From: Candidatus Woesearchaeota archaeon
Lineage (GTDB): Archaea > Nanobdellota > Nanobdellia > Woesearchaeales > GW2011-AR15
Reading direction: 5' to 3'
Assembly: GCA_016935095.1 (NCBI GenBank)
Contig: JAFGRO010000029.1
Location: forward strand, 7,313-71,312
Length of the DNA stretch: 64,000 nt
The notes beneath the pieces were generated by a model, which did no database searches, had not been told where the DNA came from, and saw only the letters and a list, made by a program, of their open reading frames with translations. Positions within the stretch are counted from its first letter, which is position 1. Each line of letters opens with the position of its first letter. A program made the position numbers and the translations under genes. Of the stretch, positions 7,646-56,660 are shown in pieces.

Positions 7646-7658
7646 TTTGTCTCATAAC

Positions 7659-9710: not shown

Positions 9711-9890
9711 AATCTAGAATCAAAATCATCTTCATCTATGTAATTAGAATCAATTTCTTTTGGATTGATTCCTTCTTTAATTGTATAGCCCTTCTTGAGA
9801 AAGAGTATTTTTTCTCTTTCAGGCAGATTTAATTTCCTGGATAACTCTCCATAATCCTGGATTGAGAAAGTGAACTTAACAAAACAGAAT

Positions 9891-12134
9891 TTATTGGTTC
9901 AAACCATTATCAATTTCTTCCTCTTCAGTTAAACCAAGCTTGTTATCATACTTTTTATTGATAAAATTTCCATCTATTCCATTCTTCCAATATATTGGGA
10001 CTTTTGTAAGATATCCTGTCTTTTCTCTAACATATTGGCGGTATGAAATTTTTTTTTCTTTAAACTCTTCTTCTAGCTTGGCAACTTCTGTACGAAATTT
10101 AGCAGGAAACATACTTACTGACATCAATCCGTCTCTGGTTCGAACCATGTTTCTTAGTTCTTCTTCTTTCAAATCGATAGCATAGATAAAGCTATTTTTC
10201 TGCCAAATTTGTCTAATAGTTTTTGTATTCTCTTCAATTTTATTGACAAGCTTATCTTTTATTATGTCATAATACACATTATTCACCTTAAGTAAATCAT
10301 TTTCATTAGTAATTTTTCTTGTTTGAAGCAATTCTGAAGTTAAAGAAACAAATTCAGGATTATAGGGATACTTTTCTTCATATCTAAAAACTTTAACAAG
10401 CGCAGGTTTCCCAACACTAATATTATTAGGTCCATTATATGAAATTTTTCTGTTTACTCTACCAAACCTTTGGACTAACGAGTCAAAATGTGCACAGTCA
10501 GTATAAAGAACATCAAAATCAATGTCAAGTGAAATTTCCACAATTTGTGTTGATACAAAAATAAAGGGTCCTTTTTTATCTTTTAATTCTTTAAGTTCTT
10601 TTTCTCTATCACATCTATCATTAAGGATAAATCTGCTATGAAGAAGTAATTTTTTTGGAAACTTAATAAGAACCTGGAAGAGTTTTTGTGCTCTCTCAAC
10701 AGTATTGAGCACTATAAGAATTTTTTCTCCTTTTTTGTACTTTTTTCTCAATTCGTCAATCAAGGATTCATAGTCAAAGATATCCGAATCTTTGTATTCA
10801 ATCTTAACTCTCTGAATATGTGAATAAATAGAGTTTACATATTTTGTTTTTAGAACTTCAACAAATCCGTTCTCCTGAAATAATTTTCTAAGATAATCTG
10901 GAAAAGTTGCACTCATTATCAAGAAACGACTTCCATATTTCTTACTTAAATAATCAACAGCAAATTTTAGTAGGCCTAAATTCCGCTCGTCAGTAGCATG
11001 TACTTCATCAATAATGACTGAGCTATTTGAAAATACGACTTCTTTTAACCCATATTTTTTATAGTTCATTAGTGATAAAATTATTTGGTCAAACGTTGTT
11101 ACATTGAGTGCGGGAAAGAAACTCTTTAACAAAGTTTTTTTGGAAAATTCATTTTCATCTGAAAAAACTTCAAAATAGGAATGGTAAAATCCAATTTCCT
11201 CTTCTTTAAATACTTTTTTCAAACGATCATAGATTCCGTTTATACTTGCAGTTGTAGGAAGAACATAAAAATTCTTAAAATTGCTATTCTCTTTAAGCCA
11301 CAGAATAGCTGATTCTGTTTTTCCAAAGCCCGTTGGTAGTTGAAGAAACCCGTTTCCTTTAAACTTGAATATTTTCTCCTGATAATCTCTTAGAGAATAT
11401 CCTTTATGCTTTAGAATAATATCTTCAGGATTTGTCTCTAGCTTTTGTATATTCTCCCTTGAACTAGACAAGTAGTCACTATAGATTATAACTCCGGAAA
11501 TAAATACATAAATTGCTCTTAGCTCCTCACATGGTACATCAACAATATCCCATTTAATTCTATTATAAATTCTTTTTGCCAAATAAGTAGTGTTAGGCTT
11601 TTTATTTACTAATTCCAGTATATTTTCTGGGATTTCAATGTCAAAATTTTTTTGAAATAGTTGTATTTCCTCAAGAACACCACATAAACCAATATCAAAG
11701 GTACTTTGTGGGTCACTTCTATCAAATAATGATTTTTTTAGTGGTGAATGATGAGAAGCAACTGCCAGCATCATGATGTTCTTCAGCAACTTATCTTCGT
11801 CTTTCGAAGCATTGATTATATTATCAATAACAGTAAGAGATAGTAAAGCATGTGAAACCTTCTTTTTTTCACCTGACTTCAGTTGCTTTTGAAAATAAGT
11901 ATCTGCTTTACCTATATCATGAAGCAAGGCACCTATTTGTGCAAATTTGTATATTTGGGTTTCAAGTCCTAAAAAGGATTTATATTTAGGTAACCTAAAT
12001 AGCTGAACTAACTCATTTGCTCTTTCATATGTTTCAATAAGATGAGTCCCAAGCAAAACTTTCTTTTCTTTGGGAGATAAAGGAGAGGGATATTTAGCAT
12101 AAATTTTAGAGTAAGACACAATGCTCATCTCCAA
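9891..12134 (-). CDS. cas3: Cas3 fused HD nuclease + DExH helicase
   Basis: HD motif LLHDIGK near N-terminus; Walker A PTGFGKTE; DExH box VIIDEVHATDE; 747 aa. Confidence 0.9.
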   Translation of the reverse strand: MEMSIVSYSKIYAKYPSPLSPKEKKVLLGTHLIETYERANELVQLFRLPKYKSFLGLETQIYKFAQIGALLHDIGKADTYFQKQLKSGEKKKVSHALLSLTVIDNIINASKDEDKLLKNIMMLAVASHHSPLKKSLFDRSDPQSTFDIGLCGVLEEIQLFQKNFDIEIPENILELVNKKPNTTYLAKRIYNRIKWDIVDVPCEELRAIYVFISGVIIYSDYLSSSRENIQKLETNPEDIILKHKGYSLRDYQEKIFKFKGNGFLQLPTGFGKTESAILWLKENSNFKNFYVLPTTASINGIYDRLKKVFKEEEIGFYHSYFEVFSDENEFSKKTLLKSFFPALNVTTFDQIILSLMNYKKYGLKEVVFSNSSVIIDEVHATDERNLGLLKFAVDYLSKKYGSRFLIMSATFPDYLRKLFQENGFVEVLKTKYVNSIYSHIQRVKIEYKDSDIFDYESLIDELRKKYKKGEKILIVLNTVERAQKLFQVLIKFPKKLLLHSRFILNDRCDREKELKELKDKKGPFIFVSTQIVEISLDIDFDVLYTDCAHFDSLVQRFGRVNRKISYNGPNNISVGKPALVKVFRYEEKYPYNPEFVSLTSELLQTRKITNENDLLKVNNVYYDIIKDKLVNKIEENTKTIRQIWQKNSFIYAIDLKEEELRNMVRTRDGLMSVSMFPAKFRTEVAKLEEEFKEKKISYRQYVREKTGYLTKVPIYWKNGIDGNFINKKYDNKLGLTEEEEIDNGLNQ

Positions 12135-12795
12135 ATTTAAATTGCGCTACAGGTTCATAAAAATTCAGATTGACATTATAGAACATAAGTACTTCTCTCT
12201 GCTCTTCCAGCGTTCTTCTGCTTCCTTTATAAGAGAAAGAGTGCGCACACTTGCATACCTGTGGGCTTATGAAAAATCCAGTTCCAATCTGAATATTATA
12301 TTTCTCTTTTGTTTCAATGAAAGAATCTACCTTACTGTCTTCCGTGTTTGCTATTTCATACAGAGAAGAAACGTTCTCAACTACAGCAAGAAAATCAGAG
12401 TGTCCTAAGTAGAGGACCCTAGAAGGAGAGATAATTGAATCATAAATTTCTCTAATCAATTTTTCATTTTCAGTAGCTATAAAAATTTTAAAGCTTGGTC
12501 TGTTCAGAAGCTTCCTAGATGTAATAGTACTATCTGACTGCTTTTTTTTATCGGTTTTTAAGTTCTTTAATTTCCATAAGTCATTAATAAAACCAGAAAT
12601 GTTAATGATTTTGACCCCTATAAACAATTTTGCATACAGTTCATTCATTTCATCATACTGCAAACCCATAGCGTTGCCTATCATCCCAACAATATGAGTC
12701 TTTTGTGGGCCGATCAGGCTATCAAAAAAAGAAAGAGTAAAGGGATTTCTAAAGAAAGCCATGTCTCCTCTCAAAATAAAATGAAATCCTTTCAT
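12106..12795 (-). CDS. cas5: Cas5
   Basis: 229 aa, MKGFHFILRGDMAFFRNPF... Cas5-like N-terminus; overlaps cas3 start, follows cas7. Confidence 0.75.
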   Translation of the reverse strand: MKGFHFILRGDMAFFRNPFTLSFFDSLIGPQKTHIVGMIGNAMGLQYDEMNELYAKLFIGVKIINISGFINDLWKLKNLKTDKKKQSDSTITSRKLLNRPSFKIFIATENEKLIREIYDSIISPSRVLYLGHSDFLAVVENVSSLYEIANTEDSKVDSFIETKEKYNIQIGTGFFISPQVCKCAHSFSYKGSRRTLEEQREVLMFYNVNLNFYEPVAQFKFGDEHCVLL

Positions 12796-13688
12796 GATAA
12801 ATCTAGTTGTTCAAGTTTTGTCTTCAAGTCTTTCAGACTCAGAATTTCTACTTTTTTATTACTTTCAAAAGCTTTCTCCAATTCGCTAGCATTAGATATA
12901 AAATAATCTAGATATCCAATTATTACTGTTTCAAGCTGCTCATCATACAATTCAATAACCTGCTTTAACCTGCTAACATCAATATTTTTGTTTTCATCCA
13001 TCCATAGTCTGTCGAAGATTGTCAATGCTTTATCTCTCCTAATTACAGCAATCATAAATTCTGGCGAGGTCTTTGTCAGAAAATTAGTTTGTTTTCCCCC
13101 ACCCCATGAATTGAAGACTGCTTCAATTAGTTCTCTAAAATGCTTTTTTTTATATTTATCATCAATCTCTTTATCGTCGCTCTCGTCAACACCAATCCTA
13201 TCTAGTTCAATCGCGAAATTTCCTCGCATGAGATTACTGGAAACCTCAATATCATAGAGACTATGATTTGTTCCCTTTGGATCATATCTCACACCACGAT
13301 TGATATCGCCTTTATATTCATAAAGAGAAATAAGGCCATTTGTTTTTACGGGAGCTACTCTTGTCTTCTTCAGATTTGTATTCATATAGCCAAATAAATC
13401 ATCATCAATGAAACTTATATCACAAGAAGAAGAAACTTGGCTTGCTTCCTCTTTTTCTTTTTCAGTTGCTTTAGCATCTTTTTTTGATAAGACATCTGAA
13501 ATTGGGACGCCTTTTGATTTCCAGTATTCTTTAAAGGCGTATTTCAGTGAAACACCTGACACATATACTCTTTGTTTGCCGTCAAAATCTTCTGTTTTCT
13601 TCAGTGTAGCTATGTTGCCTTCAGTAGAATTGCTATTAATATTGGCATTTTCAATTCTTGTTAGATATGCTAGTTCTAGTAATTTCAT
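12792..13688 (-). CDS. cas7: Cas7 (Csh2-like backbone subunit)
   Basis: 298 aa, position between cas8 and cas5; 4-nt overlap with cas5. Confidence 0.7.
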   Translation of the reverse strand: MKLLELAYLTRIENANINSNSTEGNIATLKKTEDFDGKQRVYVSGVSLKYAFKEYWKSKGVPISDVLSKKDAKATEKEKEEASQVSSSCDISFIDDDLFGYMNTNLKKTRVAPVKTNGLISLYEYKGDINRGVRYDPKGTNHSLYDIEVSSNLMRGNFAIELDRIGVDESDDKEIDDKYKKKHFRELIEAVFNSWGGGKQTNFLTKTSPEFMIAVIRRDKALTIFDRLWMDENKNIDVSRLKQVIELYDEQLETVIIGYLDYFISNASELEKAFESNKKVEILSLKDLKTKLEQLDLS

Positions 13689-13690
13689 TT

Positions 13691-15088
13691 TTATCCCTCC
13701 ACATTATTTGATTCTTTTTTCTCTTTTAAGAAGACTGCATTTGTTAGTCCAATAAGGAAAAAGGTCTTTAGTTGTGCAAAATCATCCATATGTTCTATGA
13801 ATATGTCACCTCTAATGCCAGTCCCTATTTTCAATTGGAGCCGGTTCAGTAGATTCATGAACTCTTCTTGATTTCTTGCTCTTCTCATATCATAAATCTC
13901 TTTAATGATAACATTTTGCCTTGATTCATTCCTTTTGAATTGCATCCCTATTGAGAAGGCATGTTTATATACCTCGTTAAACAATTCTTTTTTATCCATT
14001 TCAAACACCTCAAAGTAAGATTTTAATACAGTTCTGCTGAAACTTATTAGCTGAACCTGCTTAAGCTGTTCAGCTTTACTCTTTTTTTTATACTCATCAA
14101 GCTTAAGAAATAATATTTCCTCAAGAATTCTCCAATTGAGTCTATTATTTCTACACAGGGAGAGCATAAGAGCATTTCTATTAATAAGTTGAGCTTCATC
14201 TTTAGGATTTACAATTAGTGAATTCAAGAAAGAGCTAAAAGGTCGAATCAATGTCCCTTTAGCATTTCTCTTTATAGATTGGTTGGTTTTGTTTAGAAAG
14301 GTAATAATTAGATTTAAATTATTTAGATTGTCGAATTCTCTATAGATTTTTTTACTTTTGGATAAGTCTGCTGACAGAACAAGCGCACCAACATCAAGCT
14401 GATCTTCTTTAGCAAGTTCTTTTTGCTCGTTAAGAAGTTGTGTTATATAATCAAGAAATGAAATTAATAAATAGTATGCCCCATAAATATAGTACGAGCC
14501 GGTAATGTTGACATTTTTAAAGTAATTATTTGTTGAAGCGTCCATGTTCATCCTATGAGTCATTAAATGATTTACATGTTTGGGGTTTCCATAGAGGATA
14601 ATTATTGAGGTAAGATTTTTCTCTGTTATAAAACATACATTTCGATATGCTGCAAATAGTATGTTCTTACATTTGTGACAGGCTACAAATTCAGATGTGC
14701 CACCATAAAGATTTGGAAACTTTTGCTTAGTAATGATGAACGGGAAATAGAAAGAAGTAATTGTTCCTGCCCCTTTTGATTCACAAATTATACATTTCTT
14801 TTGATTTTTTTCTTCTTTTTGAAGAAGTTCTTTCATATATTCGAAATCTGTTCTGCTTCCTTTTGATTGAAGTTGAGCGCCGAGGAAGCTGTTGGCAAAT
14901 ATAGTTCTTGTTAGCTTATTATCTTTGCTTGTGTAAAGATTGTTAATGATGATACCCTCATCAAGTCCCTTCTTTGGAATTAAATCAATGTCAATACTCT
15001 CCTCTCTTGTTTTAGAAAAAAGTCCTTTCCTAGATTTCTGAAAGTAACTTAATGTTGCCAATCCTGAACTATACCATTCTTTTATCAT
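13691..15088 (-). CDS. cas8b: Cas8-family large subunit (type I-B-like Cas8b)
   Basis: 465 aa immediately upstream of cas7 in the interference operon; Cys-rich segment CIICESKGAG...CHKCKN. Confidence 0.55.
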   Translation of the reverse strand: MIKEWYSSGLATLSYFQKSRKGLFSKTREESIDIDLIPKKGLDEGIIINNLYTSKDNKLTRTIFANSFLGAQLQSKGSRTDFEYMKELLQKEEKNQKKCIICESKGAGTITSFYFPFIITKQKFPNLYGGTSEFVACHKCKNILFAAYRNVCFITEKNLTSIIILYGNPKHVNHLMTHRMNMDASTNNYFKNVNITGSYYIYGAYYLLISFLDYITQLLNEQKELAKEDQLDVGALVLSADLSKSKKIYREFDNLNNLNLIITFLNKTNQSIKRNAKGTLIRPFSSFLNSLIVNPKDEAQLINRNALMLSLCRNNRLNWRILEEILFLKLDEYKKKSKAEQLKQVQLISFSRTVLKSYFEVFEMDKKELFNEVYKHAFSIGMQFKRNESRQNVIIKEIYDMRRARNQEEFMNLLNRLQLKIGTGIRGDIFIEHMDDFAQLKTFFLIGLTNAVFLKEKKESNNVEG

Positions 15089-15574
15089 TTATTCCCCCAA
15101 CCCCTCCATCACTTCCTCCATCGTCTCCTTATGTCCCCAGCCCTCGCAGCTTCTTTCAACTATTGAAATTAACCTATCCTTAAACAAAGGTATTAAATCC
15201 GTATTATCATTTAAGTTTTTAATAATCTGCTCAAACATCGATTCCATGCTTGAGTAGAAGGCTTCATACATATCCCCATATTCTTCTCCAATTCTTACGC
15301 CTGTCTCAACATAGAACACCATCAGCTCCAGAAGATGCTCCGGCTGCTTTGATATTCTTTTAAAGTCTGTTATTGCTTTTCTTGCTTCTCTAAGGTTAAT
15401 CCGTTCATTCCAGAGAATGCTTTTGAGCTTTTTCTTAAAGTACTCAAGGGCATCTTCCGGCTTATTCTCGAGCTTCAGCCTCAAAAAATCAGCGTTTTCT
15501 TTATTCAGGCTTGATAGCTCTAAAAGGAGTGAGTATAGTTCTTCTTTCTCCAATTGTTTAAGCACATTATTCAT
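15089..15574 (-). CDS. Hypothetical helical protein in GC-rich island inside cas operon
   Basis: 161 aa; markedly higher GC than flanks; start overlaps upstream ORF by 8 nt. Confidence 0.4.
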   Translation of the reverse strand: MNNVLKQLEKEELYSLLLELSSLNKENADFLRLKLENKPEDALEYFKKKLKSILWNERINLREARKAITDFKRISKQPEHLLELMVFYVETGVRIGEEYGDMYEAFYSSMESMFEQIIKNLNDNTDLIPLFKDRLISIVERSCEGWGHKETMEEVMEGLGE

Positions 15575-16409
15575 TTTTTTTCAATCGTTTCTTTTTCTCT
15601 GCTTCTGTCTCTAACAGATAGTTTTCCTGCGAAACAACCTTTGATCCTGATTCAAGCTCAAGATTTTTTCTTGCATCACCAGCTATTTTTCCGCCTTTTT
15701 GTGCGGCTGACCTGTTTTCAGTGAAGCCTTGTGAATCCCGGCTCCTTGTTATTTTTGTGGTTGAAGCTTCACCCAGCATTGTAAATATGAGTTCTAAGTC
15801 GTCCATATGGTCTCTTAAATTTTCCCGAGTTAAACTCTTGAAATTCTTATACTCTTCAACAGTCTTGCCAAAAGTTGCTTTGCTTATTTCATTGGTAAGA
15901 ATTGCGTATTCTTTTTGTTGCTTAACTCCTCTTTTATCCCACTCATCTGTGAGTTCCTGCCTGACTGCTATCCCTCTCACTCTTTTCTCTATCCAATCAT
16001 CTGAGTATCCTTTTGCTTTGTAAAGCTCCTTCATTCGTGCCTGGACCAGCTCAGGATTCTCTATCTCCTGCACTCTCTCATATCCAACCTGAGCCAGCCA
16101 CCGCTTGAAGGGTTCTGCTTTGGGTGACGGGATTGATTGAATAATACGAAACATGTTTCTGGTGTTTGCGCAGTCTGTTGCCCTGAATTTTCCATCTTCT
16201 GCAGGCAGTTTTAACTGTACGATTTTATCGTACGGTTCAAATCCTTCATCAGAAAGCTTAGATTTTAAGTCAGACCAATATCTCTTTGGTAGTGAGCTTG
16301 CTTCTAAAGCGTTAACCACATCTATGATAGAAAAATACCATTCATTATTATGCCAAATCCTCCGGATATTTTTGTCTTGAAATACAACCAAAGCATTGTG
16401 TTCGATCAT
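15567..16409 (-). CDS. Bro-N domain protein (DinD/Bro family-like) in GC-rich island
   Basis: N-terminal VVFQDKNIRRIWHNNEWYFSIIDVVNALEASSLPKRYW resembles Bro-N consensus (F...iR....g.pwF.a.Dva.aL); charged C-terminal region. Confidence 0.45.
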   Translation of the reverse strand: MIEHNALVVFQDKNIRRIWHNNEWYFSIIDVVNALEASSLPKRYWSDLKSKLSDEGFEPYDKIVQLKLPAEDGKFRATDCANTRNMFRIIQSIPSPKAEPFKRWLAQVGYERVQEIENPELVQARMKELYKAKGYSDDWIEKRVRGIAVRQELTDEWDKRGVKQQKEYAILTNEISKATFGKTVEEYKNFKSLTRENLRDHMDDLELIFTMLGEASTTKITRSRDSQGFTENRSAAQKGGKIAGDARKNLELESGSKVVSQENYLLETEAEKKKRLKKNE

Positions 16410-16450
16410 ATTCTAACCATCCCTTTCCTGTCTTTTCCTGCAAATTCCAT

Positions 16451-16732
16451 TTATCTCATTCCCATCATTCTGCACAACGGACAATCATCATGTCTCCAGC
16501 TAAACCTTGCATTCTTCCATTCATCATCCGATAATGTGCATATCGTCCTGTCAGTCCTGAGCATGTTCAAAAAATCCCTGTGTGTCATCTCAGTTCCTTC
16601 AAGCTTTCTTGCCAGCTCGTCCAGTTTTGGCCAATGCTCATTGTGCAATTCTTCCCGTTCATAGCATTTCCTTGTACAGTAATTCCCGTGAAACCAATTT
16701 ACCAAATGCCTGATTTTAACTGGTCTTTTCAC
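16451..16732 (-). CDS. Small Cys-containing protein (CxxxC ... CxxC) in GC-rich island
   Basis: 93 aa, CTRKC and CPLC; start overlaps cas6 stop by 4 nt. Confidence 0.35.
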   Translation of the reverse strand: MKRPVKIRHLVNWFHGNYCTRKCYEREELHNEHWPKLDELARKLEGTEMTHRDFLNMLRTDRTICTLSDDEWKNARFSWRHDDCPLCRMMGMR

Positions 16733-17478
16733 GTCTTCACCACATTCATAAACCCAAATCCAGAGCTATTCAACTCTCCAAACCCTGACTCTAAACCAAG
16801 CCATAACACTCTCCTTTTCAATTCATCTAAGTGTGAAAACCGGAATTCCCACAAACTGCCAATTGTGGGTATCTCATTTCCTTCTTCTATCCTGTGAACA
16901 CATACAGATTTCTTGAACTTGAATATCTCAAATAAATCAATAGTTTTCATTTCGGAGCTATAATACTGGTTGTATTTCTTAACAAGATTATCAGAAATCT
17001 GTTTTAGGAAAGCATTAAAGTCATATTCAGGGCGCCAGTACTCATAAGGCCTTTTACTTTTAATACCATATATATGATAATTTTGTTTTGGTATCCTCAT
17101 TACAATTGGTGTTCCTGTAATAAGGCTTGCTTTCTCAGTAATAAAAGGCTTCAGGTAGCTTATCTCATCAATGCTAAACATTGATTCTCCTATTAATACA
17201 GGCTTATTGAATTGCTTTATCTCTGCAATCCTTCCGTAAAGAAACCTTATAAAATCACTATCTGGCGAAGAAATAATAAAATGACGTTCTTCTCCTGTTT
17301 TAACATCCTCTACAGGAAATATGTTTGAATAGCAGAAAAACTTATAATATCCCTTATCATGCTTATTGAAATACTTTGATTCCTTCATAAGGCCATAGAC
17401 AAATCCCCTTAGCTTAGAATAATACTTCTCATCATAAGAAAAATCTTTCAGGGCTTTGAATTTTAATATTATACGCAT
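16729..17478 (-). CDS. cas6: Cas6 crRNA endoribonuclease
   Basis: 249 aa, C-terminal glycine-rich loop GLESGFGELNSSGFGFM typical of Cas6; first gene of operon. Confidence 0.8.
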   Translation of the reverse strand: MRIILKFKALKDFSYDEKYYSKLRGFVYGLMKESKYFNKHDKGYYKFFCYSNIFPVEDVKTGEERHFIISSPDSDFIRFLYGRIAEIKQFNKPVLIGESMFSIDEISYLKPFITEKASLITGTPIVMRIPKQNYHIYGIKSKRPYEYWRPEYDFNAFLKQISDNLVKKYNQYYSSEMKTIDLFEIFKFKKSVCVHRIEEGNEIPTIGSLWEFRFSHLDELKRRVLWLGLESGFGELNSSGFGFMNVVKT

Positions 17479-28726: not shown

Positions 28727-31700
28727 TTATTCAGTAGAATAATCTTTAAACATCTCTATTCTTGGATCAGGAATACTCTCAAGAAGTTCAGGGTCTAAAA
28801 CAATATTCCTAAATTCTTCATAAGTAATAAAGTCATATACTTCCTCAAACTCTCCAACTATTCTTGTTTCATAATGTACATAATAATATCCCTTTTCATG
28901 GTATTGATGCCACATGGTCTGCAAACCATTTTTTGTAAAAACTATGTCATGTGCACCTTTTATTCTTCTTAATTCATCTGTTAACTGTTCTAGCAATACA
29001 TTTGATAGGTCTAGGTGCTCTCCACGATAATCTTCATTAATTTCAATATAAGACTTATAAATTCTTGTAGTTGAACCTGTATGTAGCCATTGATCACATG
29101 TACCCTCATCCCACATAGAATAAAAGCCTACATATTCATTACCATTATTATTAATATCATAAAGTAATATATGTTCCTGATATATATCCATAGTAGAATC
29201 ACGGATAATTAATACAACATACTCCCTCCTATTATACATTACAGATTTAGTCTCAAATTCAATATCATCACCCTTAAGATCTATTTTTACTTCTCCTCCT
29301 ACATAAGTTCTTTTAGTAACTATTCCTCCTTCAATATTATTAAATTCATTTAATCCATCAATACCAATGCTTTTAGCAGTATATTCTCCACCCCTGACAA
29401 TTCCTGCTTCAAGTTCAACTTCAGCTCCATAAAATGATAAATCTGATCCTTCTTGTGCTAATACAACATCCCTGATTCTATATTCATTTCTTTCTGAGAT
29501 AAAGTCAACTTCTGATCTTTCCCGCAATTTGGAAAAACTAGTAATATCACTTACTTCAAATACATTTACTATTGAACCATCCGGTGTTTCAAATACGCGT
29601 AAATTAGCATGTCTTAGCTGATATTGCATTGCTTCAACATTTGTATCTACATTTACCTCAATATCAAAACCAGAGATACCTCCTCCCATGCTATTTACAA
29701 TTGTAGCGAATGAACCAAGCAATGGATGAACACTAGATAGAATTTCTTCACCAACTTCTTCAAGAGCTTCTTGGGCAACTGTACTTACAACTTCAACAAC
29801 AAGTCTTCCCCCAGAAGTCTTTAAAAGAAATCTACCTACAGCATTGCCCATTAATCTTGGTCCAAGAACTCTACTTGGCAATGTAACAATATCATGTATT
29901 AATAATACTACTGCATTTCCTGATTGTGCTGCCTTACTAATAAGATAACTTCCAAGAGAAGGCAGTAGTTTTGTGTATATTGGATTGAATAAAGATGCAA
30001 TAATTTTAGGAATTTCATATCTTTGAAATTCATCAGATTGCCAGAAAAATTTTCCATTCATTGCTTCTAAAACTTGTTCTACTGTTTGGCCTTCTTTATA
30101 TCTTTTAAAAGTAGAAATATCCCCATTATATGTAAGTCCTGCTTTTCCATCTGCCATTAATCCACTTAATAAACTTGAAGATAAAGTATACTCGTCTGTT
30201 TCTCTTAATAATAATGCAGCTTTGAACATTTCCTGACTAGCCTGACTAGGGTCTTTAGGATCTTCAACATTAAGATATAAATTAAATAAAGGATTTTTTT
30301 TTAAATAAACTAAATAACTAAATCCTATAGAAGGATTTAAATTTTCATCAAATTCTGCTTCCATGTAATCAGTAAATTCACCTTTTAGTAGCCCACTCTC
30401 ATATCCATTTGAATTAAATACTTTCTCACCATAAAGTACAACAACACCTCCATCAGCATTTCCATGTTTTGATCCATAAACAACCAGTGGAGTCCTTCCA
30501 GGTGAATTAAATTCCTCTGTTTTCTCAACTGTATTTGGTGGCTCTCTATTATAAACGATGATTCCACCCCATTCACGTATGATAATATTTCTTATTGGCT
30601 CAAGACCATTTACATAATACAAATCAACAATACCTCCATTAAGTGTAATTTGACCTGTATAAAGTCCTGAAACTTCATCTTCTCTTAATTTTTCATCTCC
30701 AATTAATGAATATTTTACATATGTTTTATCATTATGTATTTCAACATAATCATTGCGCATTAATGTTATTGGTTGATTGTCTCTAATTTGAGTTTTTAAA
30801 AACTCTACTCTTCCAAGAAGTTTATTATCTGTTTCTTTCTCTAATTCCTGAACCACTCCAGTAAGAGTAAGTTCTGGATAACGATTAGTAATCTCTTTTA
30901 ATTTTAATGCCGCATTTGTTTTTGCTGTATAATAATATTCCAACCACTGTTGTGGAGTTGTACTAATATCAGCATACATAAAAATTGGATTTGCTGAATT
31001 AATCCCCAGCTGAAGAAAACTAACTATGTCCATTAAAGGACCTCCTTCAAACATAGGTTTAATATCTTTGCCAGAAGCAAGTGCCCAAAAACTATCTGGC
31101 GTAAGTCTAGCTTTAGTTTCATGATAACTAATACTTGCTCCAATAAGTGTCTTTTCAAGTGCATCATTAACAAGAAGATTTCCTTGTGAATAATCAAAAC
31201 CATATTCACTGATAAGCCAATGTTTTCTATGAGCATATTGGAGTTCTTCGACTGCTCTCCAATAAGCCATAATTGCTTCTTTGTATTCTGAAGTTTTAAT
31301 ATTATCATTAGGATCAAAAATATCTGAATCTCCTGATAAAAGTGAATAAGCAGCATGTGTGTATACTTCAGCAAGTGCTGTATTCTCCTCTAGCTCCCAT
31401 AAAAGAATCACTATTTCTTGTACATCCAAATCTGAAAGATCACCAACCACTTGCCATTTATTATCTATATAATCAATTCTTGGATCATTTTTCAGTTCTT
31501 GAAATTTATCCTTAGCAGCTTGTTCAGCCTCTTTTGATTTTCTATAGTTTTTTATAAAAGAACTTCCTTCAGTAAGTAATTCATTTTTGTTAATAAACAA
31601 AACATGTAAAGAGTCAAAATGACAAGTAATTTGAGCAAGCAATCCTGGGGATTCACCACCTCCTTCAATACTTTGTGATAAATACATAAGTGCTGAATAT

Positions 31701-32074
31701 GCATCATCAATGTCTTCTTCAGCTTTATGATTGTTACTTGGATCACCGTCAACTACATATTCTGCTGCACGATCCATATAAAAAAACACTTCCATTAATT
31801 TTCTTGTCTGAATTTCAGTCAAATCAAATGAAATACACTTTCCACACGCTCCTCGATAACGAATCAAATTTTCATAAGAATTAATTAGGTGTCTAACCTG
31901 GCAGTCTTCAACCAAACAAAGATCTTTATCACTAATATCCTTTAAAAGCTCACCATCACATTCCTCAGCAGACAGTGTTTCCTCAGGTTGAACTCCTGGA
32001 CAACATCCAGTCAACAAAACAATCAGTACAATAATACACATAATTATTAATATCTTAGAATTTTTTTTATTCAT
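28727..32074 (-). CDS. Large (1115 aa) secreted/lipoprotein-like surface protein
   Basis: N-terminal signal MNKKNSKILIIMCIIVLIVLLTGCC (lipobox-like); long uninterrupted ORF. Confidence 0.5.
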   Translation of the reverse strand: MNKKNSKILIIMCIIVLIVLLTGCCPGVQPEETLSAEECDGELLKDISDKDLCLVEDCQVRHLINSYENLIRYRGACGKCISFDLTEIQTRKLMEVFFYMDRAAEYVVDGDPSNNHKAEEDIDDAYSALMYLSQSIEGGGESPGLLAQITCHFDSLHVLFINKNELLTEGSSFIKNYRKSKEAEQAAKDKFQELKNDPRIDYIDNKWQVVGDLSDLDVQEIVILLWELEENTALAEVYTHAAYSLLSGDSDIFDPNDNIKTSEYKEAIMAYWRAVEELQYAHRKHWLISEYGFDYSQGNLLVNDALEKTLIGASISYHETKARLTPDSFWALASGKDIKPMFEGGPLMDIVSFLQLGINSANPIFMYADISTTPQQWLEYYYTAKTNAALKLKEITNRYPELTLTGVVQELEKETDNKLLGRVEFLKTQIRDNQPITLMRNDYVEIHNDKTYVKYSLIGDEKLREDEVSGLYTGQITLNGGIVDLYYVNGLEPIRNIIIREWGGIIVYNREPPNTVEKTEEFNSPGRTPLVVYGSKHGNADGGVVVLYGEKVFNSNGYESGLLKGEFTDYMEAEFDENLNPSIGFSYLVYLKKNPLFNLYLNVEDPKDPSQASQEMFKAALLLRETDEYTLSSSLLSGLMADGKAGLTYNGDISTFKRYKEGQTVEQVLEAMNGKFFWQSDEFQRYEIPKIIASLFNPIYTKLLPSLGSYLISKAAQSGNAVVLLIHDIVTLPSRVLGPRLMGNAVGRFLLKTSGGRLVVEVVSTVAQEALEEVGEEILSSVHPLLGSFATIVNSMGGGISGFDIEVNVDTNVEAMQYQLRHANLRVFETPDGSIVNVFEVSDITSFSKLRERSEVDFISERNEYRIRDVVLAQEGSDLSFYGAEVELEAGIVRGGEYTAKSIGIDGLNEFNNIEGGIVTKRTYVGGEVKIDLKGDDIEFETKSVMYNRREYVVLIIRDSTMDIYQEHILLYDINNNGNEYVGFYSMWDEGTCDQWLHTGSTTRIYKSYIEINEDYRGEHLDLSNVLLEQLTDELRRIKGAHDIVFTKNGLQTMWHQYHEKGYYYVHYETRIVGEFEEVYDFITYEEFRNIVLDPELLESIPDPRIEMFKDYSTE

Positions 32075-39715: not shown

Positions 39716-40867
39716 TTGAACAGGATTCTTTTTCCAGTGGTTATTGACGACACTGTTAATAGATTAACTGAACTGGACCCAGGTTTAACATTATGTCATA
39801 ATGGCGGTTCAGTATTTACAAGCGGTGAATTTTGCCCGGAATTTCCTGATAATATTGAAGGCAGTATTGCCTATATTCTCGCATCAGGTATAGGTAATTT
39901 AACCCCGCAGGACCTTTATATGAAAGCAGCTATTCTTGCAGATGGTGCAAAAACATATGGTGCAGAAAAAGTTGTTTTTATAGCTCCTGACCTTTATTTT
40001 TCAAGGGCAGATCAAAAAAAGAAAAGAAGATCTATAACAGCAAGGTTAGTAGCTGATTTTTTAAAAACTGCTGGTGTTGACCAGATAATCACAACCCATC
40101 TTCATTCTGATGAAGTTGCTGGCTTCTATAGAGACACATTTGAAAATAATTTAGAACATATAATGATTAACTTAGATTCAAAAAGAATATTTGCGCATCA
40201 TTTTTATAAGAGTCTTCAGCAAAGGGACTATAAGGGAACCGGAAAAGATATTACTCTTGTCATACCTGATTTAGGTGCAGAAGAAGAAGGGCTTGAGTTT
40301 GTTGAACTACTAAGGTCATATGGGTTAACGGATATAAGTTATATTATATGTCAAAAAGAAAGAGCTAAGCCAAATGACCCTGATTGTATTTCTTCCCGTG
40401 TTTACAAAATATCTGATAATTTTGACGGAACTATAGATGATAAATTATTGCTTGGATTTGATGATATTGGAGATACCCTTGGCACGATAATTAATGCAAT
40501 AAAAGCTGTCTGTAAGAAATATAATTCCTGTCCTGAAACTGTACTGTTCTATTTAACTCATTTAGTCCTGGCTGGTGAATCAACAGAATATATTTCAAGA
40601 TATGGCATTAATATCATTGGCTCTAATTCACGCTCAGATATTATTACAAGAGAAGGTGAATGGACAAATAATGTTGGATTAATAGATTTCACGCAATATT
40701 GGTATATGGCTATGATACAATTTGGAGAGAAGTATATCCCTGCTTCCCAAGTCCTTGAAGAATATAAGGGTGATAAGATAGGTGGATTATATAAAGTCAT
40801 AAGAGAACCTGCAATGGTAAAATTTAATGCAAAAAAATTTACAGAAGACCTAGATTTAAAAATCTAG
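39716..40867 (+). CDS. Ribose-phosphate pyrophosphokinase-like protein (atypically long)
   Basis: ITTHLHSDEVAGFY (cf. Prs DLHA.QIQGFF) and LGFDDIGDTLGT (PRPP-binding loop-like). Confidence 0.45.
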   Translation: MNRILFPVVIDDTVNRLTELDPGLTLCHNGGSVFTSGEFCPEFPDNIEGSIAYILASGIGNLTPQDLYMKAAILADGAKTYGAEKVVFIAPDLYFSRADQKKKRRSITARLVADFLKTAGVDQIITTHLHSDEVAGFYRDTFENNLEHIMINLDSKRIFAHHFYKSLQQRDYKGTGKDITLVIPDLGAEEEGLEFVELLRSYGLTDISYIICQKERAKPNDPDCISSRVYKISDNFDGTIDDKLLLGFDDIGDTLGTIINAIKAVCKKYNSCPETVLFYLTHLVLAGESTEYISRYGINIIGSNSRSDIITREGEWTNNVGLIDFTQYWYMAMIQFGEKYIPASQVLEEYKGDKIGGLYKVIREPAMVKFNAKKFTEDLDLKI

Positions 40868-42441
40868 TACTTTCCCAACCCCAGCTGACCTTTTCTCTTT
40901 CCTTTTGGGATTTCTTCTTTTTCAATATCAATGCCGACTTCTTTTTTTATTTTAAGAGCAGTGCCTCTTCCAATCAGCTGTGATAATTTCATCAAGTCTG
41001 TGTTCTTAATATCGCCAATATCTTTTATTCCGTTTCTGAACAGTTTTCTTGCACGGACTCTGCCGATGCCTTTTATTCTCACTAATGGAATCAGTTCTTC
41101 TTTTATACCGTGCTTTAACCTGAACCTGGTTTTTTTGATTGTCCTGACAATATCCCTGAACTGCAGTAATTTAGCAAGCTCTTCTGATGCATAAAGTATC
41201 CAGTCTGCATTGCCTTTTTTATAATTGAATTCACCTGGCCTGACAGAATATCTCTCTAAAAGAAACTCTTCATCTTTTTCCTCAAGCCATTCATTAAGTA
41301 CAATGGCAGTTTTAGTTGCATTCAGGAATTCATCATATTCAGGCTCATAAACAGAGGGTTCAAGCACAATCAATTGAGATGAATGCTCAGAAAGCTCTTC
41401 TTCAATTTCATTTATCTCTTTTGTTCTCACGCGAAAGTAAGGCCTTAATTCAATTGTGTTTGCAATCATATGCAAAAATGAAAATTCATTCACCATTACC
41501 TGGGTTGCTCGCCTCATGCATGTAATTATGAAATTTGCTGTAAGAGGGTCAATATAAAGCTGTGAAACTCTCATGCCGAGTTTTGTTGCCTCAAGTTTTA
41601 TTTCAGAGAACTCATCTGCAGATATGAATTCCGAGCTGTTATTTATTGAACTTGTCTTAATAAATTCCCATTCATCTAACTTATCGATAATTTTTGAGAT
41701 TATCATGTCAATCTCATTAATGTCTTTGTAATGATGAGCATAAAATGTTCTTTCAAAAAACTCTAAAAGCTGTTGTTTTGTCCTTACAAAATTTGTTGCA
41801 ACAAGGCTTAAAACATATGTCCTTAAAACTGGCTCAACAGCCAGTTTTGAAAGGATAGGCTCCGGCTCTCCTAAAAGAAACCTCTGCAAAACAGTCTCTT
41901 TTTCAGCATCATCCGAGACAATGCAGATTGCCTCTCCGAATTTGTCATTGAAATCCGGGCGGCCTGCTCTCCCTATGCATTGATGGTATTCTAAAGTAGG
42001 AATCCATTCCATGCCCCACCTGCCGCCATACCTTTTCAGGTCTTTCATGATTGCACGGAACGCCGGAAGGTTGAGGCCGAAAGCCAAAGTAGGAGTGCAG
42101 CAGATTATCTTAACTAAGCCCGCCCTGAAATTATCTTCAATTAATTTTCTTTGCTGATGAGCCAATCCGGAATGATGAAACGCAATGCCTTTTTTTAAGC
42201 ATAAAGCAAGCCTCTTGCATTGTTTTGTCGGTGTTGTAAGAGCATGAAGCGCATGATTAGCCATTTCATTTAATTTTTCATTGTTTGTCTTTACCTTCAA
42301 AGAAATTTTTTCAGCAGTTGCCTCTGCAGTCCGTTTTGTATTGCAGAAAACCAATGCCTGTTTGCCGATATTGATTGTATCCAATGCAAGATTCAAAGCA
42401 GGCAGGTCTGTCAATTCATTAATTTTAATAGATGTTTTCAT
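40864..42441 (-). CDS. Hel308/Ski2-like helicase, C-terminal half only (RecA2 + WH/ratchet + HhH); no RecA1 ATPase domain
   Basis: Starts just before motif IV (LVFCNTKRTAE); has HHSGL, motif V TPTLAFGLNLPA and motif VI IGRAGRP; no Walker A/DExH; upstream neighbour is an unrelated zinc-ribbon protein. Confidence 0.55.
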   Translation of the reverse strand: MKTSIKINELTDLPALNLALDTINIGKQALVFCNTKRTAEATAEKISLKVKTNNEKLNEMANHALHALTTPTKQCKRLALCLKKGIAFHHSGLAHQQRKLIEDNFRAGLVKIICCTPTLAFGLNLPAFRAIMKDLKRYGGRWGMEWIPTLEYHQCIGRAGRPDFNDKFGEAICIVSDDAEKETVLQRFLLGEPEPILSKLAVEPVLRTYVLSLVATNFVRTKQQLLEFFERTFYAHHYKDINEIDMIISKIIDKLDEWEFIKTSSINNSSEFISADEFSEIKLEATKLGMRVSQLYIDPLTANFIITCMRRATQVMVNEFSFLHMIANTIELRPYFRVRTKEINEIEEELSEHSSQLIVLEPSVYEPEYDEFLNATKTAIVLNEWLEEKDEEFLLERYSVRPGEFNYKKGNADWILYASEELAKLLQFRDIVRTIKKTRFRLKHGIKEELIPLVRIKGIGRVRARKLFRNGIKDIGDIKNTDLMKLSQLIGRGTALKIKKEVGIDIEKEEIPKGKRKGQLGLGKY

Positions 42442-43439: not shown

Positions 43440-43979
43440 CTACTCTGCGACTTTTAAAAAGTACGTAGTATCTTGTTCGGCGGTAAAAGAAAAAATATTT
43501 TTCTGGACATCATTAATTACTTTCACTTCATGGTGCATCTCTTGGCTTAATATATAATCATCTGCTTCATTCATGTCTTTTTTTCCTGTAGACTCATGAT
43601 GTTCATATCCTGACCAAAAACTACCTCCAGAATATCGTTTTCGAAAATTTGGATGCTTTTCAAATATCCTTTTGGATGATCTTGATTTGAGCATTATCTC
43701 AGCATTCATTATTGAATATTTTTTTGGAATATTCACTCTGAAATGCGTGTGATTTCCTCCAAATCCTATAGGTCCAAATTCAAAACCATTTCTCTCAAAT
43801 TCTCGAAAAGCTGCTACACACGTGTTCATAACTGATTGCTTTCGCAAGCAGTTATAGCGGCACTTACAAACAAACATCATAGTAATCCAATTATTTCTAG
43901 TGTCTTTATTCATTAAACTCACCTCAGAAAGATTTTTATGGTTATATCTATTGATAAATATCTGCAATAAGCGAATCAT
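43440..43979 (-). CDS. tnpA: IS200/IS605-family transposase (TnpA, HUH Y1)
   Basis: GGNHTHFRVNIPKKYS (HuH) and KSRSSKRIFEKHPNFRKRYSGGSFWSGYEHHESTG resembling IS200 TnpA C-terminus. Confidence 0.6.
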   Translation of the reverse strand: MIRLLQIFINRYNHKNLSEVSLMNKDTRNNWITMMFVCKCRYNCLRKQSVMNTCVAAFREFERNGFEFGPIGFGGNHTHFRVNIPKKYSIMNAEIMLKSRSSKRIFEKHPNFRKRYSGGSFWSGYEHHESTGKKDMNEADDYILSQEMHHEVKVINDVQKNIFSFTAEQDTTYFLKVAE

Positions 43980-44050: not shown

Positions 44051-44413
44051 TTGGTTCGCTTATTTGCTTTATCTAAGCATAACCCACATAGAATTCTGTT
44101 TTTGTCTGAGAAAAACCTTTCGGTTTTTCTGTACCATTTCATCTGCGGGTCTTTCAGACCTCGCAGTATTCATGACACGAAAATAAGATCTATTTCCAAG
44201 AAATTAAGTAAAGATGTTGTAAATGGATTAATTAAGAGCGGACTTAGAGCTACTTGTCTCATTTGTAGAAGAAAAGAAAAAAACTGGAATGATATTTATT
44301 GTATAAGTGTTCGTGGATTTAATATGTTAAGAAGGTGGATTAAGCATATTGGCTCGAATAATCCGAAAAATATTAGAAAATTTAAGCTGGTGGAATCGGG
44401 CGTTAATAAATAA
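44051..44413 (+). CDS. Hypothetical basic protein next to IS200 tnpA
   Basis: ORF only. Confidence 0.2.
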   Translation: MVRLFALSKHNPHRILFLSEKNLSVFLYHFICGSFRPRSIHDTKIRSISKKLSKDVVNGLIKSGLRATCLICRRKEKNWNDIYCISVRGFNMLRRWIKHIGSNNPKNIRKFKLVESGVNK

Positions 44414-44414
44414 C

Positions 44415-44534
44415 TGGGCCCGATGAGATTTGAATTCGTGAATCCAAAGGATTTCTCACGACCGCCCGATTATCAGTCTCGCCCTCAAAATTTAATTTTG
44501 AAACGGGCGCTCCACCAGACTAAGCTACGGGCCC
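44415..44534 (-). tRNA. tRNA-Ile(GAU) with two putative non-canonical introns (26 nt in the anticodon-stem 5' strand at ~30/31; 20 nt at T-stem/T-loop junction ~53/54)
   Basis: Minus strand GGGCCCG-TA-GCTT-AGTCTGGTG-GAGC-G-CCCG[TTTCAAAATTAAATTTTGAGGGCGAG]A-CTGATAA-TCGGG-CGGTC-GTGAG[AAATCCTTTGGATTCACGAA]TTCAAAT-CTCAT-CGGGCCC-A; spliced form gives a 74-nt cloverleaf. Confidence 0.55.
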
Positions 44535-44602
44535 ATCTTATTCTTGGAATTAGAATATTATTTAAAAAGTTAACGAAAAAACTATAAAAAATAAAAGAAA
44601 AG

Positions 44603-44735
44603 CGCCCCGGACCAGACTCGAACTGGTGACCTCATGATCTCCGCGTTACACTTGTGCGCATTTGCACTTCGTGAAATGTAACAGTCATGCGCTCTACCTG
44701 TTGCTCCGTGCTTTACACGTCTAAGCTACCGAGGC
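44603..44735 (-). tRNA. tRNA-Asn(GUU) with canonical 37/38 intron (40 nt) and a ~20-nt insertion in the D-loop
   Basis: Minus strand GCCTCGG-TA-GCTT-AGACG[TGTAAAGCACGGAGCAACAG]GTA-GAGC-G-CATGA-CTGTTA[CATTTCACGAAGTGCAAATGCGCACAAGTGTAACGCGGAG]A-TCATG-AGGTC-ACCAG-TTCGAGT-CTGGT-CCGGGGC-G. Confidence 0.55.
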
Positions 44736-45750: not shown

Positions 45751-45847
45751 TACGGTAGCCGGGGCTCGAACCCGGGTCACGACCTTTCTTCAATAATATG
45801 GGAGGGTCGGGTCTTTTAGTGTCAAGATACCACTGGACCACTACCGT
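45751..45847 (-). tRNA. tRNA-Gly(CCC) with 13-nt canonical-position intron and probable ~13-nt D-loop insertion
   Basis: Minus strand ACGGTAG-TG-GTCC-AGTGGTA[TCTTGACACTAAA]AGAC-C-CGACC-CTCCCA[TATTATTGAAGAA]A-GGTCG-TGAC-CCGGG-TTCGAGC-CCCGG-CTACCGT-A; acceptor and T-arm unambiguous, D-arm model tentative. Confidence 0.45.
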
Positions 45848-46024: not shown

Positions 46025-46128
46025 CGCGCCTGATGAGATTCGAACTCACGACCTATTGCTCTCTTCTTTTGAATAGGAGGTTCGACAAGTTTGTTTCAAT
46101 CGCTCTATCCAAACTGAGCTACAGGCGC
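46025..46128 (-). tRNA. tRNA gene with ~29-36-nt insertion(s) in the anticodon region; identity unresolved
   Basis: Minus strand GCGCCTG-TA-GCTC-AGTTTGGATA-GAGC-G-ATTGA...(36 nt)...GCAAT-AGGTC-GTGAG-TTCGAAT-CTCAT-CAGGCGC-G; acceptor, D- and T-arms canonical, no 7-nt loop with U33 at standard position. Confidence 0.45.
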
Positions 46129-46291
46129 ACGTCAAAGCTTTCTAAGCCTCAGCTAACTCTCTTCATCCCATTAAGGGACTACTCCAAGGGCTCTTCATCG
46201 GCTGGTTAGGCTTAATTTAAGGTTGAAACTTAATTCATTTAATAAGTTTTCTAGTAAAATATAAATAATAGTGAATTTATAAAATGTACAG

Positions 46292-56299: not shown

Positions 56300-56660
56300 T
56301 AATAAAAACAAGATTATTAAATTTTGTGGAAAGTGAGAGGCATGCCAAGAAATCGATCCAAACACTAAATTCTGGTTAATCTTGAATTCTCCTCGATCCT
56401 GCTACCCTCTTAGCACCAGTTTTGAAGATTAACGTTGCTTCATTCCTGATCTCTCACGTGCGCCGGCACAGGATACAATCGAATCTCCGGTTCTGACGCA
56501 TGGCGTGGTTCTCAAAAAAACCAGTCCAAAAGGACAAAATCTCATTGTTGAACCCAAGGCCAAAACTTAGCTTTAAGACCTCTTTCCAGGCTTCGACCCC
56601 ATCATACGTCCATTTATGGTTACAGGGCAGGACGGGCACCCCAGTCTAGCCTCTCAAAAG
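56300..56660. ncRNA. GC-rich ORF-poor structured segment, candidate ncRNA (RNase P RNA or SRP RNA-sized); identity and strand unresolved
   Basis: ~360 nt with GC content clearly above the AT-rich background, only one short spurious ORF, multiple hairpins (GUCCAAAAGGAC; GUGAGAGGC...GCCUCUC end complementarity). Confidence 0.3.

Follow-up and report, generated by a model that had tools for sequence, protein, structure and literature searches.

A tRNA-Ile(GAU) gene of a Candidatus Woesearchaeota archaeon with two predicted introns at non-canonical positions

The minus strand of the 64,000-nucleotide (nt) stretch of contig JAFGRO010000029.1 analysed here (hereafter, the window) carries a complete tRNA-Ile(GAU) gene in which two insertions, of 26 and 20 nt, separate three exons (Table 1). 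Read from 44534 to 44415, the gene has the form GGGCCCGTAGCTTAGTCTGGTGGAGCGCCCG-(TTTCAAAATTAAATTTTGAGGGCGAG)-ACTGATAATCGGGCGGTCGTGAG-(AAATCCTTTGGATTCACGAA)-TTCAAATCTCATCGGGCCCA, with the insertions in round brackets; exon 1 aligns with the 5' part of uninterrupted homologues, and each insertion sequence is present once in the window. The original prediction, namely that this strand yields a cloverleaf once the two insertions are deleted, is borne out: from the sequence that lacks both, ARAGORN calls a 74-nt tRNA-Ile(GAU) with the arms as predicted, that is, a 7-bp acceptor stem, a 4-bp D stem, a perfect 5-bp anticodon stem, a 5-nt variable region (CGGUC) and a T arm with the stem GUGAG/CUCAU and the loop UUCAAAU, the discriminator being A73. 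The anticodon loop (C32 U33 G34 A35 U36 A37 A38) is that of a class I tRNA-Ile(GAU). The minimum-energy fold of the spliced product consists of four cloverleaf arms (-36.2 kcal/mol, z = -3.4 vs shuffles), with a D stem that differs slightly from the canonical 4 bp. The D loop comprises nine nt, so that linear position 31 corresponds to Sprinzl position 30, and the sites to which the insertions had been assigned, 30/31 in the 5' strand of the anticodon stem and 53/54 between the T stem and the T loop, are correct. A T-rich tract directly after the discriminator is a putative terminator. Archaeal TATA boxes lie ~26-27 nt before the start site, and the agreement with this spacing makes a TATA-like box upstream of the gene the putative promoter.

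Both insertions had been described as hairpin-forming and compatible with the bulge-helix-bulge substrates of the archaeal splicing endonuclease, and inspection of the two junction pairs shows that each fits the canonical geometry; together with the introns of relatives described below, this makes a better case for the splice sites than had originally been put. We tested the geometry of the canonical 37/38 intron, whose 4-bp helix takes in the first two anticodon nt (PMC4090602): 4 exon nt that end two positions short of the 5' cut pair with 4 intron nt that end two positions short of the 3' cut. In the first insertion (intron 1), C25-G26-C27-C28 faces GGCG and, in the second (intron 2), C48-G49-U50-G51 faces CACG, all four pairs being Watson-Crick in either case. 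The 3-nt bulges on either side of the helix read CG↓U and AG↓A in the case of intron 1; those of intron 2 read AG↓A and AA↓U (arrows mark the splice sites). Each splice site thus falls after the second bulge nt, in a symmetrical register that is dictated by the homologue-defined junctions. Within the insertions, the hairpin is of 7-8 bp in intron 1 and of 5 bp in intron 2. The exons additionally supply intron 1 with an outer helix of 2 bp (A23-U33 and G24-C32), which makes for a complete, strict motif. Both motifs, together with the acceptor stem, occur in the minimum-energy fold of the 120-nt precursor and, as they occupy separate parts of it, they may form together, with no splicing order required. 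With lengths of 26 and 20 nt, the insertions differ from group I introns, which span ~200 nt or more and possess a conserved catalytic core, and Rfam scans of the window returned zero matches to group I intron families. Group I introns of tRNA genes usually reside in the anticodon loop.

ARAGORN, which had been proposed as a check, gave zero tRNA calls on the raw 64-kb window and a positive call (tRNA-Ile(GAU)) on the intron-deleted sequence; it is thus of no direct use on the raw sequence. Covariance-model scoring was positive: the Rfam tRNA model (RF00005) matches even the unspliced gene, with identical end coordinates, at 31.6 bits (gathering threshold 29). We scanned both strands of the whole window for strict bulge-helix-bulge motifs with no prior on position (4-bp helix, 3-nt bulges, cut after the second bulge nt, intron helix of at least 3 bp, introns of 11-130 nt); all single candidates and nearby pairs were then spliced out and the products submitted to ARAGORN. 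The motif was matched by 10,332 and 11,058 out of ~7.7 million (start, length) pairs per strand (~0.14%), and with ~21,000 candidates in a window of 33% GC, the motif by itself carries little weight. When the window was shuffled twice with dinucleotides preserved, the number of candidates stayed the same, yet ARAGORN made only 0 and 2 calls. In the actual window, the sole tRNA-Ile that emerged uses exactly the interval of intron 1 given in Table 1, and the product of 74-76 nt also uses the interval of intron 2. At a motif fit of ~0.14%, two pre-specified junction pairs would both conform with a probability of ~2e-6, as estimated from the candidate count.

The same junctions are favored by homology, which provides the stronger evidence. 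A profile hidden Markov model built from 53 uninterrupted tRNA-Ile(GAU) genes (73-79 nt, without an extra arm) scored the unspliced gene at 51.7 bits, the gene without intron 1 at 65.8 bits, without intron 2 at 64.2 bits, and without both at 78.4 bits (E = 1e-25). Junction shifts of 1-2 nt reduced the score, except for the sequence-equivalent placement of intron 1 at 29/30; the latter leaves an identical mature sequence but, by our reading of the sequence, breaks the central helix, and it was rejected. Searches with each intron at up to 4 mismatches detected no copies elsewhere in the window, and hence no sign of intron spread within 64 kb.

For comparison with relatives, a pattern scan covered archaea and bacteria at one genome per species and produced 64 loci; a scan of metagenomes for insertions located between positions 43 and 54 added L068. 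Most of the 64 loci are uninterrupted tRNA-Ile(GAU) genes of marine group III and of DPANN archaea (Micrarchaeota, Woesearchaeota, Aenigmatarchaeota and Undinarchaeota). The sequences closest to the spliced product are all tRNA-Ile(GAU): it is identical to the uninterrupted gene L026 at 70 of the 74 positions, and to six others at 69 of the 74. Insertions at the two sites recur among these relatives. At 30/31, the tRNA-Ile(GAU) gene of Woesearchaeota CG08_land_8_20_14_0_20_47_9 (L063) contains a 28-nt intron, and those of L041 and L046 (Bilamarchaeaceae and Micrarchaeota) contain unrelated introns of 16 nt; at 53/54, the tRNA-Ile(GAU) gene of L068 (metagenome contig Ga0233413_10116238) contains an unrelated intron of 23 nt, with none at 30/31. 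The exons of L063 and L068 are near-identical to those of the window gene and the 4-bp central helix is alike, whereas either locus has just one of the two introns, the lengths differ (28 vs 26 nt and 23 vs 20 nt, respectively), the intron interiors are unrelated to those in the window, and the helix nucleotides differ in step with the exon.

This covariation can be followed pair by pair. In L063, the exon has U25 and the intron GGCA, so that C25-G becomes U25-A; in L041 and L046, the 30/31 helices CGUU/GACG and CGUU/GGCG turn C27-G into U27-A or U-G; and in L068, where CCGG/CCGG stands in place of CGUG/CACG, G49-C becomes C49-G and U50-A becomes G50-C. Double compensatory changes are thus seen at pair 25 (L063), pair 27 (L041 and the tRNA-Arg gene of the window, see below), and pairs 49 and 50 (L068), which, with a handful of sequences, constitutes qualitative evidence. 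The bulges are conserved as well: the window and L063 have CG↓N and AG↓A in common at 30/31, and the window and L068 have AG↓A and AA↓U in common at 53/54. Given that presence and absence differ at the same sites while the helix is kept, these sequences indicate that introns at 30/31 and 53/54 come and go among relatives, with the exon-intron helix maintained wherever an intron is present. The combination of 30/31 and 53/54 introns in a tRNA-Ile(GAU) gene was not found among the 66 related loci retrieved.

Gene order is conserved, too. In the window, as in L014, L044 and L063, tRNA-Ile(GAU) directly follows a tRNA-Asn(GUU) gene; an Asn-Ile order also seems to be present in L068, where a tRNA 3' end that resembles that of the window Asn gene lies 4 nt upstream of the Ile gene. 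Neither the Asn nor the Ile gene of L014 and L044 contains introns; the Asn gene of L063 has introns at 30/31 and 37/38. L041 and L046 each have a second insertion, for which no placement in the 3' strand of the anticodon stem fits the motif, so that this placement was rejected; the insertion is more readily interpreted as an intron at 37/38 with a single mismatch.

Several of the loci retrieved were set aside or differ in kind. L010 (Binatia bacterium), L038 (Pyrinomonadaceae bacterium) and L067 (metagenome contig PVBE011321901.1) were excluded because the matches are bacterial tRNAs with a long variable arm, which is typical of Leu, Ser and Tyr; yet, in an odd combination, these tRNAs have the anticodon loop CUGAUAA (GAU, isoleucine) and an anticodon stem of the archaeal Ile type. 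L018, a pattern match without a tRNA call from any tool, was taken as chance and likewise excluded. Four tRNA-Ile(GAU) genes of DPANN or uncultured archaea (L006, ~5860-5990, plus strand; L013; L015; and L031, ~4032-4140, minus strand) have uninterrupted anticodon and T arms and insertions of ~35-50 nt in the D arm, which are probably D-loop introns; tRNA-Ile(GAU) would then be interrupted at further sites in other lineages.

Apart from the tRNA-Ile gene, an intron-independent scan based on T arms and acceptor stems located only three tRNA genes in the window, and the four genes form one 1.7-kb cluster on the minus strand (Table 1). ARAGORN misses all four in the raw window and Rfam finds two (Ile and Arg); the Asn, Gly and Arg genes each become ARAGORN-positive after removal of two introns. 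The introns of these neighbours were resolved by hand from stem complementarity and, in the case of Asn, also from homologues. Enumeration with a relaxed motif (one mismatch, up to three introns) resulted in many mutually inconsistent ARAGORN calls and was abandoned as too permissive. The neighbours' motifs vary in quality, from perfect ones to ones with a single mismatched pair in the central helix. The 13-nt introns at 37/38 of the Gly and Arg genes have the helix CUCC/GAAG in common, in which C34 is mismatched with A. The motif of the 40-nt Asn intron is weak, with two G-U pairs and without an adjacent intron helix, and this intron may fold differently. Altogether, there are 8 introns in 4 adjacent genes, and introns at 30/31 occur in genes for three tRNAs (Ile, Arg and Asn) across two DPANN phyla.

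Table 1. Coordinates of the tRNA-Ile(GAU) gene, its parts and other features of the window
Feature	Coordinates	Strand	Description
tRNA-Ile(GAU) gene, complete	44415..44534	minus	120-nt precursor body, 74 nt spliced; CCA not encoded
Exon 1	44504..44534	minus	31 nt; acceptor 5' strand, D arm, nt 26, anticodon-stem nt 27-30; GGGCCCGTAGCTTAGTCTGGTGGAGCGCCCG
Intron 1	44503..44478	minus	26 nt; Sprinzl 30/31; UUUCAAAAUUAAAUUUUGAGGGCGAG (= TTTCAAAATTAAATTTTGAGGGCGAG in the full reading)
Exon 2	44455..44477	minus	23 nt; A31, loop CUGAUAA, anticodon-stem 3' strand, CGGUC, GUGAG; ACTGATAATCGGGCGGTCGTGAG
Intron 2	44454..44435	minus	20 nt; Sprinzl 53/54; AAAUCCUUUGGAUUCACGAA (= AAATCCTTTGGATTCACGAA in the full reading)
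Exon 3	44415..44434	minus	20 nt; T loop UUCAAAU, CUCAU, acceptor 3' strand CGGGCCC, A73; TTCAAATCTCATCGGGCCCA
Putative promoter	44559..44566	minus	TATA-like box TTTAAATA, read from sequence; centre ~28 nt upstream of tRNA position 1
Putative terminator	44405..44413	minus	T-rich tract TTATTTATT, read from sequence; directly after the discriminator
tRNA-Asn(GUU) gene	44603..44735	minus	upstream neighbour; introns 44720..44701 (20 nt, 15/16) and 44678..44639 (40 nt, 37/38)
tRNA-Gly(CCC) gene	45751..45847	minus	13-nt introns 45828..45816 (20/21) and 45798..45786 (37/38)
tRNA-Arg(CCU) gene	46025..46128	minus	introns 46096..46081 (16 nt, 30/31) and 46073..46061 (13 nt, 37/38); Rfam RF00005, 50 bits
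Candidate C/D-box small RNA	46147-46202	minus	19 nt upstream of tRNA-Arg(CCU)
IS200-like Y1 transposase gene	43440-43979	minus	~440 nt from the tRNA-Ile gene
Hel308/Ski2-like helicase open reading frame	40864-42441	minus	525 amino acids
Archaeal signal recognition particle RNA	56334-56656	minus	full length; Rfam RF01857, 132.7 bits
CRISPR array	5597-6286	plus	11 identical 30-nt repeats ATTTCAATCCTTCTTAAGTTCTATTAAAAC, spacers ~36 nt
Type I-like cas operon	6653-17478	minus	adjoins the CRISPR array
Open reading frame	28727-32074	minus	1115 amino acids; no Pfam match at E <= 1e-5
Open reading frame	6-1682	plus	558 amino acids; no Pfam match at E <= 1e-5

The expectation that such a gene bears on the identity of the organism is upheld by the remaining content of the window. 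Besides a full-length archaeal signal recognition particle RNA, the window encodes proteins of archaeal type (a TFIIB zinc ribbon, archaeal helicase domain 4 and DUF460), with NMD3 encoded in an overlapping contig. Between the tRNA genes lies a gene for a DUF192 protein with 100% identity to MBN2422422.1, a protein of a Candidatus Woesearchaeota metagenome-assembled genome, which places the host in this phylum of the kingdom Nanobdellati (the DPANN group). The next-best homologue of the DUF192 protein is only 57% identical. Exact look-ups matched two contigs only, both of the same sequencing run, and the tRNA-Ile gene is present in neither.

Other features of the surroundings deserve mention in their own right. 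An IS200-like Y1 transposase gene is located close to the tRNA cluster, and Logan contig SRR13394437_73041, an independent assembly from the same run, ends ~250 nt past this gene, before the cluster, which suggests that the region may be repetitive or variable. The candidate C/D-box small RNA upstream of the tRNA-Arg(CCU) gene shows terminal GCC/GGC pairing, two AUGAAGA boxes and a CUGA D box, with sR47 as its best Rfam match (19.3 bits, well under the threshold of 40), and may be co-transcribed with the tRNA. The array of clustered regularly interspaced short palindromic repeats (CRISPR) is accompanied by genes for Cas1, Cas4, Cas3 (HD and helicase), Cas5, a Cas7/Csa2-like protein and Cas6, among which genes for a BRO-N protein and a TrmB-like regulator are interspersed. 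The Hel308/Ski2-like helicase reading frame produces Pfam matches to Helicase_C, HTH_61, archaeal domain 4 and HhH; these start only at Helicase_C, with none to the N-terminal DEAD/RecA1 domain, and since the gene upstream encodes an unrelated TFIIB-zinc-ribbon protein, a split or truncated gene is possible.

Collectively, these observations make it very probable that the locus is a functional tRNA-Ile(GAU) gene of a Candidatus Woesearchaeota (DPANN) archaeon, with two introns of the type removed by the splicing endonuclease. Cleavage by EndA, ligation by an RtcB-type enzyme and addition of CCA are established archaeal tRNA biology, and the predicted pathway would run accordingly for this gene. 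Transcription, probably from the TATA-like box, would give a precursor of ~120 nt in which each intron would pair 4 of its own nt with 4 exon nt just 5' of the insertion site, leaving 3-nt bulges on both sides. EndA would cut after the second nt of each bulge, and the four cuts would generate fragments of 31, 26, 23, 20 and 20 nt; an RtcB-type ligase would then join the three exons, with CCA added afterwards. The relaxed motif of intron 2, described below, implies that the host endonuclease would have to tolerate relaxed motifs, as expected of the broad-specificity type.

A number of observations weigh against this interpretation. That the tRNA-Ile(GAU) precursor is spliced is something we infer from the gene and its relatives, and neither enzyme was encountered in the searches made: a crude tblastn search of the whole window with an approximate M. 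jannaschii EndA query returned noise only, and Pfam scans of 40 of the open reading frames of the window detected neither EndA nor RtcB. Intron 2 lacks an exon helix closing the 3' bulge and hence represents a relaxed form rather than the strict motif. In the lowest-energy fold, both motifs slip by one nt at the 5' bulge and their central helices gain one pair; by the nearest-neighbour model, the slipped and the canonical 4-bp registers are at -12.4 vs -8.9 and -9.0 vs -6.8 kcal/mol, which makes the canonical conformers 2-3.5 kcal/mol less stable. In L063, according to our reading of its sequence, the one-nt slip is impossible and the canonical register is unambiguous. Within the tRNA itself, two features depart slightly from the usual, namely G21 in the D loop and the wobble pair G49-U65. 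Finally, a 94-nt model from which only intron 1 has been removed is accepted by ARAGORN as well.

Of the alternatives, the one that survives best, and that we nevertheless regard as very improbable, is a decaying pseudogene, in which an ancestral tRNA-Ile gene retains two insertions that are never removed and gives rise to no functional tRNA. Decay would account for the silence of ARAGORN on the raw sequence and for an Rfam score barely above the threshold (31.6 vs 29 bits), and it would be in keeping with the transposase gene ~440 nt away and with an endonuclease gene not being found in the searched parts of the window. It is difficult, however, to reconcile with a spliced product in which all stems are intact and the exons are identical to working homologues at 70 of the 74 positions. 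Moreover, random insertions should not both contain precisely placed complementarity to the exon (~2e-6 jointly), nor should relatives have other insertions at the same sites with compensatory changes. Decay of the entire cluster would mean that four neighbouring genes, each for a different amino acid, had all become pseudogenes in a window of 64 kb in which we detected no further tRNA gene, which is implausible.

The functional two-intron gene has also to be weighed against a version with one intron, at 30/31, in which the 20-nt insertion is retained as a hairpin between the variable region and the T loop of a 94-nt tRNA. The ARAGORN call obtained with only intron 1 removed, the Rfam alignment, which reads the 20-nt stretch as an insertion before an alternative T stem, and the missing outer helix of intron 2 are all compatible with such a tRNA. 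However, this alternative T stem includes several non-standard pairs, whereas splicing restores a perfect GUGAG/CUCAU, and removal of intron 2 gains ~13 bits against the homologue profile, the 53 genes of which are 73-79 nt long and have no extra arm. Furthermore, L068 has an unrelated insertion at the same junction, in which the four pairing nt track the changed exon, and 53/54 is a documented intron site (PMC4090602). Retention of the hairpin thus appears marginally less probable even than decay. Still further behind is chance resemblance, namely an AT-rich intergenic stretch that becomes tRNA-like after convenient deletions, which, despite ~21,000 motif candidates in a window of 33% GC, equally many in the shuffles and 2 spurious ARAGORN calls in one of the latter, has a vanishingly small probability and can be considered effectively refuted by the 70/74 identity to real genes and the profile score (78.4 bits, E = 1e-25), with the above-threshold Rfam match to the unspliced interval and the conserved Asn-then-Ile gene order arguing in the same direction.

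We therefore return to the tRNA-Ile(GAU) gene with two introns and its place in the literature. The original prediction held that multi-intron tRNAs with non-canonical positions are restricted to a few archaeal lineages; this undersells what has been reported, namely a wide archaeal spread that encompasses Crenarchaeota (especially Thermoproteales), Thaumarchaeota, Korarchaeota, Nanoarchaeota, ARMAN and other DPANN (PMC4033280, PMC5829648, PMC8450103). Genes with two or three introns are known from Crenarchaeota (especially Thermoproteales), Thaumarchaeota, Korarchaeota, Nanoarchaeum and ARMAN (PMC4033280, PMC8450103). Both 30/31 and 53/54 are listed among the non-canonical archaeal tRNA intron positions (PMC4090602), and multi-intron tRNA genes with non-canonical bulge-helix-bulge introns are described by Marck & Grosjean 2003 and by Sugahara et al. 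2007/2008 (cited in PMC4033280 and PMC4090602). Multiple DPANN lineages are reported to have an EndA with an extra loop (L3) that is associated with many disrupted tRNA genes, and incomplete tRNA sets have been explicitly noted in such genomes (PMC5829648). With both positions and DPANN multi-intron tRNAs already in the literature, the gene is a well-supported further example. In the searchable open-access literature, prediction of tRNA genes for a Woesearchaeota genome was found only in PMC5829648, and no description of this gene came up. What is modestly new is the host lineage, the combination of sites in Ile-GAU, the 8 introns in 4 genes, and the fact that 30/31 recurs as an intron site in three tRNA species and two DPANN phyla.

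Our understanding of how tRNA introns work is unchanged by this gene; its implications are more specific. It suggests that the woesearchaeon possesses an endonuclease tolerant of relaxed motifs at non-canonical positions, and the presence or absence of introns among relatives with the same gene order provides a small, clean data set on turnover outside Crenarchaeota. Because ARAGORN misses such genes and Rfam catches only some of them, genomes of this kind would seem to lack essential tRNAs, which distorts estimates of completeness and claims on missing decoding capacity for DPANN; tRNAscan-SE 2.0 in archaeal mode searches for non-canonical introns by default (PMC8450103). The density in the cluster exceeds the Thermoproteales average of 0.84 tRNA introns per gene (PMC8450103), four genes being too few to generalise. 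A tentative idea, and one that we consider rather unlikely, is that the tRNA intron load of this Woesearchaeota lineage is at least that of Thermoproteales and that recent, repeated gains at pre-adapted hot spots reflect active gain and loss in DPANN, similar to the transposition of introns that has been proposed for Thermoproteales. The 30/31 hot spot could possibly be explained by A23-G24 and C32-U33, which are found in every gene examined here and would provide a ready-made outer helix.

Comparison with known systems places the gene within archaeal tRNA splicing as currently understood. The predicted enzyme, the motif and the cut register are those of the canonical 37/38 intron, in which helix nt 32-35 correspond to nt 25-28 or 48-51 of the window gene (PMC4090602). 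Unlike the canonical intron, those in the window gene are located in the 5' strand of the anticodon stem and at the boundary between the T stem and the T loop, with none at 37/38, so that formation of the motifs would require partial melting of the cloverleaf (the D and anticodon stems, or the T stem). Split and permuted tRNA genes (Nanoarchaeum equitans, Caldivirga, Cyanidioschyzon) rely on the same motif and on the same enzyme, and one known split, that of tRNA-Lys CUU, likewise falls at 30/31 (PMC4090602); the exons of the window gene, by contrast, lie colinear and contiguous within 120 nt of a single strand, so that neither trans-splicing nor a circular intermediate is needed and the gene is neither split nor permuted. 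A close match is with the known multi-intron tRNA genes of archaea, which likewise have short introns (published range 11-129 nt), a 4-bp exon-intron helix, 3-nt bulges that hold the splice sites, and more than one intron per gene, and the occurrence of a strict and a relaxed motif in one precursor resembles the substrates of broad-specificity endonucleases (PMC5829648).

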